DNA of 64,000 bases from an uncultured Gammaproteobacteria bacterium (GCA_964613815.1 CAZTKG010000003.1:125440-189439); one strand, 5' to 3'; counted from the first letter of the stretch, positions 6,486 through 56,613 are shown. A program made the numbers and translations. Notes: generated by a model not told the origin, from the sequence alone.

Positions 6486-9518
<3,033 letters not shown>

Positions 9519-9541
9519 AGAGCTTTTGATAAAACAGCGGT

Positions 9542-9570
9542 GATTGTCGCTGTTTTTGATTTAACCCTTG
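9542..9570 (+). terminator. rho-independent terminator after gyrB
   Basis: aaacagcg-gtgattgt-cgctgttttt. Confidence 0.5.
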
Positions 9571-9600
9571 TCAAAAACGCTTATTTGTTATACATTCTAG
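9570..9600 (+). promoter_or_regulatory. candidate sigma70 promoter for secE-nusG-rplK
   Basis: TTGTCA-N17-TACATT. Confidence 0.35.
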
Positions 9601-9639
9601 TCGTTGCCCACCAGGGCTTTTTTGAAAACTCAAAAATTT

Positions 9640-9846
9640 ATGAAATCAGCTAGTTTTGGATCTGTTATCAAGTATTTTCGGGAGGCGAAACAGGAACTTG
9701 AAAAGGTTACCTGGCCGAATCAGAAGGAGGTTACTCGGTACTCGATTCTATGTATCGTCATCAGCGTTCTTGCTGGAGCTTACTTTGGCGTCCTGGATCA
9801 GATTCTTAGCTATTTCGTTGAGGTTCTCGTGAACCTCGCTAACTAA
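9640..9846 (+). CDS. secE: preprotein translocase subunit SecE
   Basis: Small single-TM protein directly upstream of nusG with a conserved KEL..V.WP motif. Confidence 0.75.
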   Translation: MKSASFGSVIKYFREAKQELEKVTWPNQKEVTRYSILCIVISVLAGAYFGVLDQILSYFVEVLVNLAN

Positions 9847-9852
9847 ATTACT

Positions 9853-10398
9853 ATGGCAAAACAAACAGCGAATTACGGTCGACGCTGGTACGCGATCCAC
9901 ACCTACTCTGGCTATGAGGAGAACGTGTGTGAAAACTTGATGCAGCGTATTGAGACCATGGACATGGAGGAGAAGATCTTTCAGGTCCTTGTTCCGAAGG
10001 AGAAGAAGATCAAAATCAAGAATGGAAAGCGACGGATTGTTGAGGAGAAGATTTTTCCAGGATATGTGCTCGTTGAGATGATGGTGACTGATGACTCTTG
10101 GTATGTTGTGCGAAATACGCCAAACGTGACGGGATTTATTGGCGCTGGGACCACCCCTACACCGATTGCTGAGCAAGAGATTGAGTCTCTTATGAAGCGG
10201 ATGGGTGTGGAAGATCCTGAGTTTACGCTCGATGTACGTGTTGGTGATCCGATCGCGATTACTGACGGGCCGTTTAAGGATCAGCAAGGAAAGGTTTCTG
10301 AGATCGATGAGCAGCGCGGAAAGATCAAGGTTCTTGTTTCCATGTTTGGTCGAGAAACTCCGCTTGAGCTCGACTTCTTGCAGGTTAAGAAAGTTTAG
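9853..10398 (+). CDS. nusG: transcription termination/antitermination factor NusG
   Basis: WY.I.T.SG.E NGN domain plus a KOW motif. Confidence 0.9.
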   Translation: MAKQTANYGRRWYAIHTYSGYEENVCENLMQRIETMDMEEKIFQVLVPKEKKIKIKNGKRRIVEEKIFPGYVLVEMMVTDDSWYVVRNTPNVTGFIGAGTTPTPIAEQEIESLMKRMGVEDPEFTLDVRVGDPIAITDGPFKDQQGKVSEIDEQRGKIKVLVSMFGRETPLELDFLQVKKV

Positions 10399-10426
10399 TC
10401 CTGATTCCCCTATAGTAAATTGAAAT

Positions 10427-10849
10427 ATGTCTAAAGAAATTGTCAAAGTTCTCAAAGTTCAGGCTCCTGGGGGAGGGGCTACTCCTGCACCGCCGCTTGG
10501 GCCAGCGCTCTCGCAGTATGGTGTGAATATTCAGCAGTTTGTGACTGATTTTAACGCGAAGACACAAGATCGTCGCGGCGAGACCGTCCCGGCTGTGTTG
10601 ACGATCTATGCTGATCGGACGTTTAGCTTCATTTTGAAGACGGCGCCGGCTAGTGACATGATCAAGAAGGCCGCTGGGATTAAGAAGGGGTCTGGAAAGG
10701 CTCTTACAGAGAAAGCAGGATCAATCACGAAGGCTCAGCTGCAGGAAATTGCTGAGGCGAAGATGGTTGACTTAAATACCAATGACGTTGAGATGGCGAT
10801 GCGGATTATTGAAGGGACCTGTCGTCAAATGGGCGTTGAGGTGAAATAA
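10427..10849 (+). CDS. rplK: 50S ribosomal protein L11
   Basis: Conserved PPLGPALSQ motif. Confidence 0.95.
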   Translation: MSKEIVKVLKVQAPGGGATPAPPLGPALSQYGVNIQQFVTDFNAKTQDRRGETVPAVLTIYADRTFSFILKTAPASDMIKKAAGIKKGSGKALTEKAGSITKAQLQEIAEAKMVDLNTNDVEMAMRIIEGTCRQMGVEVK

Positions 10850-10858
10850 CCCAAATCT

Positions 10859-11263
10859 ATGAAAGGTGCACAGGAGGTTCTCATTAAAATCTATTTCTTG
10901 CTTGTTTCGATTATTACGCTGATCATGATTCTCGTTGTCGGATCTGGCCTGCTTGATACGGGGCTTCGGGCGTATGTGTTTCCGAATGCGAACCAACCTT
11001 CTCACGTGAAGCTTTGTGATGCGGATTCGAATGACCTGCTATTTAAGAGCGATTCTCCCACGACGCTGGAGATCGAGACCGCGATCACTGAATGCGACAC
11101 TTACAACGTGGAACAGATGTATCGGTATGAGGTCAATCAGGCCCAGGATGCCGTCCGAAATCTCTCGTATCTGATCGTTGCGCTTCCGATCTTCTTCCTT
11201 CACTTCCGGATCATCCTTCGTGAATGGCGGGGCCGGGATAACAAGAAACCTGCAAAAAAATAA
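10859..11263 (+). CDS. hypothetical small membrane protein inserted between rplK and rplA
   Basis: Two hydrophobic segments. Fills a 460-nt gap in an otherwise conserved operon. The alternative start at 10922 has no better support. Confidence 0.35.
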   Translation: MKGAQEVLIKIYFLLVSIITLIMILVVGSGLLDTGLRAYVFPNANQPSHVKLCDADSNDLLFKSDSPTTLEIETAITECDTYNVEQMYRYEVNQAQDAVRNLSYLIVALPIFFLHFRIILREWRGRDNKKPAKK

Positions 11264-11315
11264 CTAATTACTGTGGGAGCTGATCTTCAGCGCTTGAACC
11301 ACTAACGAAACCATT

Positions 11316-11993
11316 ATGCCTAGTAAGCGTTTTAAGGAGATTGTTAAAGGAGTTGATAAGGATAAGAAATACGGGCTAGATGAAGCTATTGAGCTTTTGA
11401 AGCAGGGGGCTACCGCGAAGTTTGACGAGACGGTTGAATTGCACTTTCAGCTTGGGATTGATCCGAAGAAGAGTGATCAGCAGATTCGTGCGACACTCGT
11501 GCTTCCGCATGGGACTGGGAAGACGAAGCGTGTGATCGTGTTTGCGGATAGCGCGAATGAATCAGCTGCGAAGGAGGCTGGTGCTGACATTGTTGGGACT
11601 GAGGAGACGATTGCGGAGATCGTGCAGAAAGGCGTTATTGACTTTGATGTTGCGATCGCTGTGCCGACGATGATGCCGAAGCTTGCGAAGGCTGCGCGTG
11701 TTCTTGGACCTCGTGGACTTATGCCGAACCCGAAGACGGATACGGTAGGAACGAATATTGCGAAGATGGTTGCAGAGCAGAAAGGGGGGAAGATCTCGTT
11801 TAAGAACGATAATACGTCGAACTTGCATATCGCTTGTGGAAAGGCCTCGTTTGAGACCCCGAAGTTGAAGGAGAATCTTGAGACAGTGATTGAGGCTTTG
11901 AAGAAATCTAAGCCTGCTGCTTCTAAGGGGATATTCATTAAGAAGGCGATCTTGACGAGTACGATGGGAGCGGGGATTGCGCTTGAGGTTTAG
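11316..11993 (+). CDS. rplA: 50S ribosomal protein L1
   Basis: Global similarity to L1, ending GAGIALEV. Confidence 0.95.
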   Translation: MPSKRFKEIVKGVDKDKKYGLDEAIELLKQGATAKFDETVELHFQLGIDPKKSDQQIRATLVLPHGTGKTKRVIVFADSANESAAKEAGADIVGTEETIAEIVQKGVIDFDVAIAVPTMMPKLAKAARVLGPRGLMPNPKTDTVGTNIAKMVAEQKGGKISFKNDNTSNLHIACGKASFETPKLKENLETVIEALKKSKPAASKGIFIKKAILTSTMGAGIALEV

Positions 11994-12000
11994 TCGGTCA

Positions 12001-12032
12001 TTAAAAATAGAGCTTGAGGGCTCTATTTTTTT
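12001..12032 (+). terminator. rho-independent terminator after rplA
   Basis: aaaaatagagc-ttgagg-gctctattttttt. Confidence 0.5.
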
Positions 12033-12036
12033 ATCT

Positions 12037-12114
12037 CGTCATTGCGAGCGTAGCGCGGCAATCTTGCGGTTGTGCCTCGCGGATTGGGATTGCCGCGCTA
12101 CGCTCGCAATGACA
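12037..12114. repeat. perfect 26-bp inverted repeat (GTCATTGCGAGCGTAGCGCGGCAATC) with 26-nt spacer
   Basis: The two arms are exact reverse complements. It lies between rplA and dcd. Confidence 0.8.
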
Positions 12115-12152
12115 GTGCTTCGTTTGCCTCGTTATGATAAAGTACTTTCAAT

Positions 12153-12827
12153 ATGATTTTGACTCGTGATGCTATTTTGGCGCGGATTCGGAAGGGGGAG
12201 CTTGTTTTTACTCCGGGGGTTGATCGGTTTCAGTTGCAGCCGCATGCGATCGATTTGCGGCTTGGGTATCGGTTTTTGATTCCGAAGAATTGGTCGGTGA
12301 CGGAGAGGGGGAGAGAGGCGATTCAGATATCGATAGAAGAGGAGTCTCGGCATCGGGAGCAGTTTGAAGAGGTTGTTTTGGAGCCTGGGCAGTATTTTGA
12401 CTTGTTGCCGAATGAGTTTGTGATTGCGACGAGTTTAGAGCATCTGGAGCTGAATGCGCCGGATTTGATGGCGCTTTTGTTTCCTCGGACGAGTACGAAT
12501 CGGCGGGGGATTAATCTTTCGCTCTCGGGGATTATTGATACGGGGTATCATGGGAATTTGATTTTTCCGATGAAGAATGAGGCTGGGGATCAGGTTTTGC
12601 GGCTTTATCCTGGGGAGCGGATTTGTCAGGTTATTTTTGAGACACTCGATGCGCCGCTCAGTAAAGCGGCTGCACAGATGCACGGGATGAGTCCTGCGAA
12701 GTATTCTCATGCGGCAGATTCCGCCTATCGAGTTGATAAGTCTGAAGAGCGAGAACGGCTTGTGGCGGGGGATTTGGAGGGGTTAAAATCAGCCTTTGGG
12801 GTCGATTTGGACGAGGACTCGGCCTAG
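12153..12827 (+). CDS. dcd: dCTP deaminase (dCTP deaminase/dUTPase family)
   Basis: Dcd/dUTPase fold motifs (GxIDxGYxG-like IIDTGYHGNL). Confidence 0.8.
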   Translation: MILTRDAILARIRKGELVFTPGVDRFQLQPHAIDLRLGYRFLIPKNWSVTERGREAIQISIEEESRHREQFEEVVLEPGQYFDLLPNEFVIATSLEHLELNAPDLMALLFPRTSTNRRGINLSLSGIIDTGYHGNLIFPMKNEAGDQVLRLYPGERICQVIFETLDAPLSKAAAQMHGMSPAKYSHAADSAYRVDKSEERERLVAGDLEGLKSAFGVDLDEDSA

Positions 12828-13712
12828 GTGGTCTAGAGCTTCTTCGGGGGAGTTGTATTCGATGTGGTAGATGACTCCAGGGTTTCCTCGGACGAATCTT
12901 GATAGTTTTGTGCCTTTTTTAGACATGAGCACGATCTGCTTGTTGTTTTTTTCTGCGAGGACGATTTCGCCACCGGCGCCTAGCGATGGGTAGGTGACTT
13001 CGGCGATTGTCATGTCTCGATTTGAGGCGTTTTCGAATCCGATGTTGTAGATTTCTTCTGGCGTAAGATCTTTTGCGACCTCTGGATCTGTATGCTGGTG
13101 GGGGACGTAGGCGTTGATCCCGAAGGATTCGCAGACACTTCCGATCGCTTCTAGGTAGCTTAGGAAGTCCTGACGGTCTTGTTGCGGGATGTTTGTGAGA
13201 GCGCTTGCGATGTAGGCGGTTTTTATTTTAACGCCAAGGACTTCGCCGTAGACTTTTTCTCGGGTGAATTCTTCTTTTGCGCCTTTGAGGAGGTAGACGT
13301 CTTTGACGCCGGCGTCTATTAAGACGTCCCAGCAGTATTTGCAGCACCACCAGTGGCCGTAGAGGTAGAGGTCTGATCCTTGGGTGTCGCGCCCTAATGA
13401 TTTTGCCACGTTGACGACGGTGCACTCTGCGTGTCCTGGAGGGTCGTGGACGGCGCAGAGGTCGTAGCCTTGGCCTGTGGGCGCGTCGTGGACGTAGCGC
13501 TTGCAGATGATTCTGGCACTTCGCCCCTTATTGAATCCGTTTCCAGCGCATGCGATTTCTACAGAATCTTTCACTAAACAGGCGCCGATTGGATAGAGCC
13601 GATCGCCGGACAAGTGATGACGCGCGAGCTTAGCCCGCTGCATGAATTTATTGTCTAGTGTCGTAAAACGAATTTCTTTGCCATCGGGAAGGTAAGGGTA
13701 CTCAATTTTCAT
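12789..13712 (-). CDS. dCMP (deoxycytidylate) deaminase fused to a C-terminal Rossmann-like domain of uncertain function (nucleoside 2-deoxyribosyltransferase / DNPH1-like)
   Basis: N-terminal GACLVKD...HAEC...CCKYC zinc-deaminase motifs (CDA fold). The extra ~140 aa is a C-terminal alpha/beta domain (KTAYIASALT...). Confidence 0.7.
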   Translation of the reverse strand: MKIEYPYLPDGKEIRFTTLDNKFMQRAKLARHHLSGDRLYPIGACLVKDSVEIACAGNGFNKGRSARIICKRYVHDAPTGQGYDLCAVHDPPGHAECTVVNVAKSLGRDTQGSDLYLYGHWWCCKYCWDVLIDAGVKDVYLLKGAKEEFTREKVYGEVLGVKIKTAYIASALTNIPQQDRQDFLSYLEAIGSVCESFGINAYVPHQHTDPEVAKDLTPEEIYNIGFENASNRDMTIAEVTYPSLGAGGEIVLAEKNNKQIVLMSKKGTKLSRFVRGNPGVIYHIEYNSPEEALDHLGRVLVQIDPKG

Positions 13713-19132: not shown

Positions 19133-19146
19133 GATATCTCCTGCCG

Positions 19147-19194
19147 CCATCTCGACCTTGGCGGAGAGATCTCTCCACTGCGGTCGAGATGGGA
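19147..19194. repeat. dispersed nested palindromic repeat, copy 1 (CCATCTCGACC-N5-GGAGAGATCTCTCC-N5-GGTCGAGATGG)
   Basis: Exact 11-bp outer arms and a 14-bp central palindrome, between convergent gatB and miaA. Confidence 0.8.
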
Positions 19195-21688: not shown

Positions 21689-21701
21689 ATGCGTCTTTGC
21701 C

Positions 21702-21750
21702 CCATCTCGAGCGAAGTCGAGAGATCTCTCCACTTCGGTCGAGATGGGAA
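21702..21750. repeat. dispersed nested palindromic repeat, copy 2
   Basis: CCATCTCGAGC...GAGAGATCTCTC...GGTCGAGATGG, 14 nt upstream of the thrS start. Confidence 0.8.
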
Positions 21751-23847: not shown

Positions 23848-23893
23848 CCATCTCGACCTTGTGGAGGGATCTCTCCGCAAGGTCGAGATGGGA
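23848..23893. repeat. dispersed nested palindromic repeat, copy 3
   Basis: CCATCTCGACC-ttgtg-GAGGGATCTCTCC-gcaa-GGTCGAGATGG. Confidence 0.8.
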
Positions 23894-23915
23894 ATTGGAT
23901 GATGCACCAGGTTCG

Positions 23916-32292: not shown

Positions 32293-32340
32293 ACTTCCTC
32301 CGTTCGGCGTCCATATCCTTCGCATTTTCGGCTTACGCAT

Positions 32341-32397
32341 TCATTTTTTCGACACCGTACGATTTAGTACGCCTTACGAAAAAATGAATTCGTGCAC
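32341..32397. promoter_or_regulatory. palindromic operator candidate (TCATTTTTTCG-N35-CGAAAAAATGA) upstream of the three-gene hicBA operon
   Basis: 11-bp perfect inverted repeat about 35 nt upstream of the operon's first start, lying between the pheT stop and the operon. Confidence 0.4.
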
Positions 32398-32443
32398 CGA
32401 AACTGCTTTGAATATGAACCCCTCAGTTAATGTAATTTATTGT

Positions 32444-34837
<2,394 letters not shown>

Positions 34838-51301: not shown

Positions 51302-51352
51302 TTGATTTAGTATTTTATCTCAGTTTTTGCGAAAAACCAAGCTTGTATTGCT

Positions 51353-51400
51353 CTATCTCGACCGAAATGAGGAGATCTCTCCACGTTGGTCGAGATGGGA
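51353..51400. repeat. dispersed nested palindromic repeat, copy 5
   Basis: tATCTCGACC-gaaatga-GGAGATCTCTCC-acgtt-GGTCGAGATGG. Confidence 0.75.
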
Positions 51401-51427
51401 GCAGATTTTATCCCCACTTTATCCACG

Positions 51428-51545
51428 CTATAAACACCTTTATTCACGGGGTTGTTCACAGATTTGTGGAAAAGTTATACACATTTTGTTCACGTTGACA
51501 TCCGGTTTTTTATTTACGTGTTCAAAAAGCTTAATGATTTGCCCG
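51428..51545. promoter_or_regulatory. cluster of six DnaA-box-like 9-mers followed by an AT-rich tract (candidate oriC or DnaA-regulated promoter)
   Basis: TTATCCACG, TTATTCACG, TTGTTCACA, TTTTCCACA (reverse), TTATACACA and TTGTTCACG within 76 bp, each 7-8/9 to TTATCCACA, followed by an AT-rich segment. Confidence 0.45.
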
Positions 51546-56460: not shown

Positions 56461-56502
56461 GTGTTTGATTTTCAATACCCCCTTAGCTCGGATGGCGCCG
56501 GA

Positions 56503-56600
56503 AAAATGCTCTGTAATCGGTTTTCTGAGAGCAGCGCAGTAAGGCGTATAGACAATACGTCGTCGAGCAGCGCAGCAGAAAAACGATTACAGAGTATTTT
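56503..56600. repeat. long imperfect inverted repeat (25-nt arms) in the tRNA-Arg/tRNA-Ser spacer
   Basis: AAAATGCTCTGTAATCGGTTTTCTG ... CAGAAAAACGATTACAGAGTATTTT (2 mismatches), with the inner direct repeat gagcagcgcag x2. Confidence 0.7.
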
Positions 56601-56613
56601 ACCAAGCCAGCCG

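Follow-up and report, generated by a model that had tools for sequence, protein, structure and literature searches.

Inherited gene order and a CGTC-tagged REP-like dimer downstream of rplA in an Uhrbacteria-like Patescibacteria locus

The canonical bacterial cluster reads secE-nusG-rplKA-rplJL-rpoBC. In the window analysed here, i.e. the whole stretch of 64,000 nucleotides, an extra reading frame separates rplK from rplA, the pair rplJ-rplL is missing after rplA, and a perfect inverted repeat stands between rplA and a module of deoxypyrimidine genes. The question is whether the palindrome is the trace of a recent break in the operon, as proposed in the initial annotation, or an element which settled in a gene order that is much older than itself. 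It appears quite probable that the locus joins an inherited gene order with a CGTC-tagged REP dimer, the latter being a lineage-specific, non-autonomous repeat in a variable spacer.

The gene order, confirmed with Pfam, starts with gyrB upstream of secE (9604-9846; Pfam SecE) and continues with nusG (9853-10398; Pfam NusG), rplK (L11; 10427-10849, plus strand; Pfam Ribosomal_L11_N and Ribosomal_L11, E 1e-24 and 2e-25), a 134-aa ORF for a membrane protein (10859-11263, plus strand) and rplA (L1; 11316-11993, plus strand; Pfam Ribosomal_L1, E 1.5e-58). The intrinsic terminator of the secE-rplA operon (12003-12033, plus strand) is composed of an A-tract, an 11-bp stem and a T-tract; the arms of its inverted repeat (I2; 12003-12013 and 12020-12030) are 100% complementary and followed by the T run, and the hairpin is also folded in the MFE structure of the region. 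Beyond the palindrome, a dCTP deaminase/dUTPase-like (dcd-like) gene (12153-12827, plus strand; Pfam DCD, E 1.5e-26) is the first of the deoxypyrimidine module; Pfam identifies after it a dCMP-deaminase fusion, DHFR and thymidylate synthase on the minus strand and, closing the module, thymidylate kinase on the plus strand. The description given initially, of a terminator, then an exact 26-bp inverted repeat, then the deoxypyrimidine module, is thus accurate, as is that of a membrane ORF, with two hydrophobic helices, inserted between rplK and rplA. The absence of rplJ-rplL after rplA is likewise confirmed, because tblastn searches with E. coli L10 and L7/L12 detected neither gene anywhere in the window, the best E being 0.43.

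The host lineage of the locus, as judged from its proteins, is an Uhrbacteria-like lineage of Patescibacteria (CPR): no other L1 sequence exceeds 72% identity to that of the window, the best named homologues belonging to Candidatus Uhrbacteria.

The palindrome and the CGTC-tagged repeats

The inverted repeat is exact, its two 26-nt arms (12038-12063 and 12088-12113) being 100% complementary and separated by a spacer, or loop, of 24 nt (12064-12087) which is polymorphic among strains. This element of 76 nt starts five bases past the rplA terminator; its arm is expected 0.00 times in shuffled sequences, and the palindrome region folds at -79.5 kcal/mol (z = -9.2). The range of 12037-12114 originally assigned to the repeat exceeds the perfect arms, which hold, by one base on each side, and corresponds to two complete tagged units. 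The left unit (12037-12065, plus strand) comprises a CGTC tag, the body ATTGCGAGCGTAGCGCGGCAAT and the tail CTT; the right unit (12086-12114, minus strand) comprises a TGTC tag, the same body and the tail CCC. TGTC is the reverse complement of 12111-12114, and the tags occupy the outer ends, at 12037 and 12114.

CGTC-tagged REPs were defined by Di Nocera, De Gregorio & Rocco (2013, BMC Genomics 14:522, PMC3733652). According to the accessible part of that paper, the class includes the Neisseria dRS3 and the Rickettsia RPE-4 and RPE-6 repeats, and its units display an unpaired CGTC tag, often TGTC or CCTC, a stem of 8-9 bp whose positions 1 and 2 are almost invariably complementary A-T, a loop of 4-5 nt, and an unpaired 3-nt tail, mostly CCA. 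In the same source, the units are mostly arranged as head-to-head dimers, with tags outside and spacers mostly of 20-100 bp, and they are intergenic, near the 3' end of the upstream ORF and between unidirectional or convergent ORFs, yet sometimes they lie within genes, tRNA synthetase genes included (PMC3733652). The hosts named there are Proteobacteria (chiefly alpha), Chlorobi, Bacteroidetes, Spirochaetes and Thermotogae. The later literature that was searched on CGTC REPs merely cites Di Nocera et al. 2013.

Both units of the window bear the CGTC or TGTC tag, and in both the stem starts with A-T, the body having the form ATTGC...GCAAT. They are placed head-to-head, with the tags outside and 24 nt between perfect arms, in an intergenic position near the 3' end of the upstream ORF, namely 44 nt past the rplA stop and 39 nt upstream of the start codon of the dcd-like gene, between two plus-strand genes. 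In addition, they resemble members from other organisms: a covariance model, R1, made of 54 foreign units only, with the one unit identical to the window's left out, scores the right unit at 42 bits (E 4.7e-8) and the left one at 40 bits (E 1.5e-7), the next match in the window reaching 12.4 bits. The point of departure from the published class is the continuous 8-9-bp stem with a 4-5-nt loop, in place of which the window unit, folded as DNA, forms an outer stem of 5 bp and an inner one of 3 bp, separated by a 2x1 internal loop and closed by a triloop; at -5.5 kcal/mol it is no more stable than shuffled sequence. Its 22-nt body nonetheless aligns column for column with canonical 9+4+9 units, ATCCCCCGC-GAAG-GCGGGGGAT, of foreign loci. 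The tails CTT and CCC are short and C-rich, versus the published tails, which are mostly CCA. On these grounds, the palindrome is identified as a head-to-head dimer of two 29-nt CGTC-tagged REP units of an ATTGC...GCAAT subtype. The subtype is assigned to the CGTC superfamily only, and not to a numbered family, the published families having been compared by their text description in the accessible part of the survey.

When one genome per species was scanned for GTCATTGCGAGC-N24-54-GCTCGCAATGAC, at least 120 loci in many phyla were retrieved. Among the matches listed are Bradyrhizobium, Sphingomonas/Novosphingobium, other Alphaproteobacteria and Betaproteobacteria, as well as Bacteroidota, Nostoc, Anaerolineae, Treponema, Schekmanbacteria, Moduliflexus and an Eubacteriales MAG, the last of which (L036) contains the identical 26-mer. 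Their consensus, among the matches listed, is CGTC-ATTGCGAGCGNAGCGAAGCAAT-CCA (then G), followed by a lineage-specific loop and the inverted copy, and the total length of these foreign elements is mostly 73-78 nt. Canonical units with the 4+22+3 layout, such as TGTC-ATCCCCCGC-GAAG-GCGGGGGAT-CCA, occur in the same foreign loci, and the tails of 675 units mined from the foreign loci listed include CCA (344), CTC (110), CCC (32) and CTT (31). Along with this, the base 5' of the 26-mer in 124 foreign occurrences among the matches listed is C in 66, T in 54, A in 3 and G in 1. The foreign copies adjoin unrelated genes in many phyla.

The search for further copies of the 26-mer, suggested at the outset, found none in the 64 kb besides this one dimer, which is also the only ATTGC-subtype dimer of the window; elsewhere, over 120 metagenome contigs, spanning a GC of 0.32-0.70, contain the exact 26-mer, in most cases opposite a partner arm of another sequence. 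Among plasmids, those of Methylosinus, Methylobacterium, Legionella and Aulosira carry the arm, as do the megaplasmids of Novosphingobium, one of which has it at no fewer than 40 places; it is also present in prophages of Helicobacter canis. A full-text search of the literature located neither the DNA nor the RNA form of the arm in any paper.

Perfection of the arms was seen in 56 of the 122 foreign dimers (among the matches listed, over the outer 26 nt); it is therefore ordinary for this repeat family and gives no sign of either recency or age.

A second set of REP-like units, here called type B, is represented by nine units in the window. They have a tag that is mostly TCCC, a body ATCTCGACC....GGAGAGAT (22 nt; ATCTC...GAGAT) and a CTC tail, and their dimers are head-to-head and spacer-less. 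Dimers are found at 19145-19194 (13 nt past the gatB terminator), at 21700-21749 (about 60 nt upstream of the start of thrS, which is on the minus strand), at 23848-23895 (1 nt past a terminator T-run), and, with a degenerate left arm, at 51351-51400 (50 nt upstream of the recG start); two of them, like the rplA element, are thus found 1-13 nt past an intrinsic terminator. A cluster of DnaA-box-like 9-mers (51408-51483) adjoins the last of these dimers. A single unit (34228-34256, minus strand) lies in frame within pheT, where it encodes ..PISTEVERSLP.. between the tRNA-binding and B3/4 domains; it was considered as an insertion that lengthens the protein, which was rejected, as the alignment with homologues reveals no extra length. 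Membership of type B in the sequence family of the rplA palindrome was also rejected, with at most 11 bits under model R1 and no plasmid matches.

A stricter version of the repeat hypothesis would regard the palindrome as a REPIN or a MITE, mobilised by a RAYT (Y1/HUH) or DDE transposase of the same genome. A pair of hairpin units in inverted orientation around a short spacer is indeed the REPIN architecture as given in the accessible text of PMC3116915, and an unpaired 4-nt tag is a property of GTAG REPs too. Nevertheless, the tag is CGTC/TGTC and not GTAG, and the available part of the 2013 survey records no transposase gene flanked by CGTC units (PMC3733652). In the window itself, tblastn with two RAYT fragments yielded a best E of 0.35, to an ORF devoid of Pfam hits, and the flanks outside the tagged dimer, TTATCT (12031-12036) and GTGCTT (12115-12120), share no direct repeat. 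A dedicated transposase of this kind is accordingly an unlikely, though not negligible, explanation, and the element is better regarded as a CGTC-tagged REP dimer. Along the same line, no consistent target-site duplication was seen in 122 foreign copies among the matches listed.

Arrival of the element and its local effects

The element is borne by five independent assemblies, comprising the marine-metagenome contig JGI 3300007504 Ga0104999_1000250 and near-identical contigs in four others, and is therefore not an assembly artefact. Over 6-11 kb, only 3-4 bases distinguish the strain contigs L003 and L006 from the window; two of these are changes in the spacer (12067 C>G and 12082 G>T), the arms still being perfect. 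One assembly (L004) ends inside the palindrome.

No long inverted repeat was found 3' of rplA in the relatives examined, and 51 kb of their homologous loci contain no REP units, as against 11 units in this 64 kb. The palindrome is hence a species-specific element, situated in the single spacer of the locus that varies; as the relatives lack it at this position, it was probably inserted there. An empty-site allele, with the rplA terminator joined directly to ..AGTGCTTCG, was not seen, so that the case for insertion, as opposed to loss in the relatives, depends on comparisons with genomes whose L1 shares no more than 72% identity with that of the window. The element would have arrived by whatever copying process spreads the CGTC REP class; by analogy with GTAG REPs and their RAYT transposases, the tag and the single-stranded hairpin may be the substrate that is recognised. 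Two properties attributed to the palindrome in the initial annotation are in this way retained, in that it forms a strong structure and is probably inserted DNA, while the recency of the event and its nature as a breakpoint are not.

As a candidate intrinsic terminator the palindrome was rejected: it is followed by AGTGCTTCGTTTGCC, without a T-run, and the separate hairpin at 12003-12033 is the real terminator. Since the element comes after a good terminator, it is probably transcribed by read-through only; any transcript that escapes the rplA terminator would then have a highly stable hairpin at its end, which might block 3' exonucleases or act as a back-up terminator.

Downstream, a promoter-like site of the dcd-like gene (12109-12138, plus strand) consists of a -35 ATGACA, an 18-nt spacer and a -10 TATGAT. 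This site, known by its match to the consensus, is the best sigma-70-like one in 9400-12400 (10 of 12 positions), and is placed 15 nt before the start codon. The -35-like hexamer coincides with the outward end of the right REP unit (..AATGAC + A), and the element may thus contribute the -35 box of a dcd-like promoter.

The proximity to the dcd-like gene (39 nt from its start), the overlap with the best -35-like hexamer, and the great stability of the structure might also be explained by a locus-specific cis-regulatory element, such as an operator or RNA switch for the dcd-like gene or for a deoxypyrimidine regulon, or a 3' structure of the L1/L11 operon. This is, however, very unlikely: the element is missing from the same intergenic region in relatives that keep the same genes, an identical sequence is found beside unrelated genes in many phyla, and its position downstream of a good terminator makes it probably poorly transcribed from upstream. 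Nor is there an Rfam family to match it. With 4227 models at the gathering score, Rfam recognises nothing at the palindrome, the three tRNAs being its only matches in the window; three foreign loci bearing the element gave no match either, and the E-value mode returned only spurious miRNA-hairpin matches far below threshold. An NrdR-type operator and an L1-binding mimic were considered as well, and received no support; the element is absent in relatives.

Gene order in the relatives and the protein between L11 and L1

Whether the arrangement of genes around the CGTC-tagged dimer is itself new can be read from the genomic context of six L1 homologues, 65-72% identical to the L1 of the window. 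The succession of rplK, an ORF of 119-144 aa and rplA recurs in five of the six, namely L007 (P0003), the P0010 contig, L008 (Uhrbacteria), L252 and L253, and in most of these five it is preceded by gyrB-secE-nusG. The sixth (L251) has adjacent rplK and rplA, also without rplJ-rplL; indeed, rplJ-rplL are downstream of rplA in none of the six. A deoxypyrimidine block (dcd/dCMP deaminase/DHFR/thyA or thyX/dUTPase/tmk) is situated 3' of rplA in four relatives (L007, the P0010 contig, L008 and L253), at a variable distance of zero to three genes: three response-regulator genes intervene in L007, one unknown ORF in L008, and a cytidylyltransferase gene in L253.

The order being shared with relatives, the rplK-ORF-rplA layout is ancestral and not rearranged. 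Likewise, the GC content runs from 0.49 to 0.50 across the palindrome without a step, hence the deoxypyrimidine module is not an inserted segment. From synteny, the gene order of the locus is the inherited layout of an Uhrbacteria-like Patescibacteria lineage, with rplJ-rplL located elsewhere and the deoxypyrimidine module adjoining.

That the palindrome marks a recent recombination or insertion breakpoint, at which a nucleotide-metabolism module would have entered and split an rplKA-rplJL operon, would agree with the lack of rplJ-rplL after rplA and in the whole window and with the location of the palindrome exactly between the two gene blocks, but it is extremely improbable, given that relatives without the palindrome have the same rplA-module adjacency and the same extra ORF, that composition does not change across the palindrome, and that copies of this same repeat occur across bacteria in unrelated contexts. 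The recent operon rearrangement initially claimed is therefore refuted, the rplK-ORF-rplA order being present in five of six relatives and the module following rplA in four. The same holds for the idea that the palindrome bounds an inserted nucleotide module, as GC is flat and the relatives possess the module without the palindrome. An origin of both features in the common ancestry of the lineage was also envisaged at the start; it applies to the gene order, but not to the palindrome, which is absent from the relatives.

As to the reading frame between rplK and rplA, its conservation indicates that it is a real membrane protein, predicted to be co-transcribed with L11 and L1. A word-based search for homologues matched nothing except the protein itself, whereas an exhaustive HMMER search (E<=1e-3) gathered a family of 117 representative clusters of similar length. 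Counterparts occupy the same position in L007, L008, L252, L253 and the P0010 contig; an alignment of the 134-aa ORF with these syntenic ORFs (A1) displays two TM helices and 14 invariant columns, among which are C53 and C79, both in the loop that joins the two helices. Pfam DUF5671 matches the protein at 19 bits, below the gathering threshold of 28.4 (E 0.0013, residues 95-121 only), and leaves 'faint' marks in the orthologues of relatives. No related protein was found among solved structures. Encoded between the genes of L11 and L1, this conserved two-cysteine membrane protein marks the lineage, and may be of interest for the biology of the CPR ribosome.

Relation to known repeats and operons

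To sum up, the locus consists of an inherited order plus one copy of a known kind of repeat, and annotation pipelines should consequently not flag it as a rearrangement. The host belongs to the Patescibacteria (CPR), a phylum outside the list in the accessible part of the CGTC survey, and the present data extend the CGTC-tagged REPs to it and to several other phyla outside that list. This small genome also turns out to host at least two REP-like families, with about 11 units per 64 kb, one of them in frame within pheT.

The arm of the ATTGC subtype (26-29 nt) is almost invariant in CPR, Proteobacteria, Bacteroidota, cyanobacteria, Chloroflexota, spirochaetes and Helicobacter prophages, and the question is raised again of how a repeat with no known transposase retains one arm sequence across bacterial phyla. 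It is conceivable, albeit a long shot, that the units of this subtype are copied or maintained by a universal housekeeping function instead of a dedicated mobile-element enzyme. If that were true, their presence in a gene-poor CPR genome of ~1 Mb would narrow the candidates for the machinery enough to identify it.

REPIN sequences are lineage-specific, whereas the arm of the CGTC type is almost identical across phyla. REPINs and GTAG REPs (Bertels & Rainey 2011; Nunvar et al. 2010) are otherwise similar to the element behind rplA, in that they too are extragenic and repeated, and consist of two inverted hairpins with a short spacer that form one long fold. Likewise, the REP/BIME sequences of E. 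coli 3' UTRs are located just after ORFs, the roles proposed for them, in the available part of the literature, being the protection of mRNA 3' ends and termination; they are unrelated in sequence to the present element, which follows a canonical intrinsic terminator and does not replace it. As regards the genes, the secE-nusG-rplK...rplA order of the canonical cluster is retained here on one strand, whereas the gene of a membrane protein stands between rplK and rplA, and rplJ-rplL are separate from the cluster, both being lineage-wide features.

Strain variation at the rplA palindrome, and features of its flanking genes

In two strain-variant contigs of the same species (L003 and L006), which show no more than 3-4 mismatches to the window over 6-11 kb, two of the differences (12067 C>G and 12082 G>T) fall within the 24-nt spacer of the rplA palindrome, a head-to-head dimer of CGTC-tagged REPs (12037-12114), and both of its 26-nt arms are perfect. 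Spacer changes accompanied by intact arms suggest either that this site is a hot spot of mutation or that constraint on the loop is relaxed and the arms are homogenised. A further contig of this species (L004) ends inside the palindrome, at about window position 12094; therefore, the element breaks short-read assemblies.

Concerning the flanking genes, the small membrane protein encoded between rplK and rplA (10859-11263) shows, in its alignment with syntenic ORFs (A1), two invariant cysteines, C53 and C79, in the interhelix loop; helix 2 holds a P-x-F...F motif that is likewise invariant. Clustered at 50% identity, the family numbers at least 117 clusters, and some of its members carry at least two tandem copies of the domain in proteins of 270-330 aa. 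The dCMP deaminase fusion (12789-13712, minus strand) is 307 aa long with a C-terminal domain of ~165 aa, and its orthologue in a relative (L007) bears a weak mark of nucleoside 2-deoxyribosyltransferase (PF05014).

A second family of REP-like palindromes

Four intergenic palindromes devoid of a spacer (19145-19194, 21700-21749, 23848-23895 and 51351-51400) belong to a second REP-like family, type B. Each half consists of a tag, mostly TCCC, a 22-nt body (ATCTCGACC....GGAGAGAT) and the tail CTC, a 4+22+3 layout which is that of the rplA element. Scanned with the covariance model of CGTC-REPs (R1, built from 54 foreign units), type B scored at most 11 bits and went undetected, and no plasmid matches for it were found. 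An intrinsic terminator lies 1-13 nt upstream of two of the four palindromes; each of the other two lies 50-60 nt upstream of the start of a gene on the minus strand.

A single type-B unit, identical to the intergenic copies at 24/24 positions, is found on the minus strand (34228-34256) within pheT (32444-34837), in frame within the PheRS beta linker that joins the tRNA_bind domain to the B3_4 domain, where it encodes the peptide ..PISTEVERSLP... A simple insertion is rejected as the origin of this unit, for PheRS beta is no longer there than in its homologues.

Compositional bias, DnaA boxes and other inverted repeats

A strong strand-compositional bias spans the whole window: nearly all 1-kb bins of 1-64000 combine a positive GC skew with a negative AT skew, independently of gene strand. 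The window holds 10 near-consensus DnaA boxes (TTATCCACA, with at most one mismatch), four of which cluster within 76 nt (51408-51483), further boxes with two mismatches being located nearby. This cluster is intergenic, between the start of recG and an unknown ORF, and adjoins a type-B palindrome; cumulative GC skew does not turn at this position. It is a candidate oriC or a candidate DnaA-regulated promoter.

Two imperfect inverted repeats are also present, one immediately downstream of pheT (32306-32422; 46-nt arms, 76% complementary), the other between tRNA-Ser and tRNA-Arg (56500-56603; 28-nt arms, 89% complementary).

Taxonomic spread of the ATTGC-type arm

Among the foreign genome and metagenome loci (L009-L250), the arm opposite the 26-nt arm is longer (..GAGGAGCAAAGCGACGCGGCAATC) in many of the metagenome dimers. 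Prophages of Helicobacter canis carry a near-identical ATTGC-type arm, as do Cyanobacteria, Chloroflexota, Bacillota, Patescibacteria and Schekmanbacteria, these five phyla lying beyond those listed for CGTC REPs in the 2013 survey (Di Nocera et al.).
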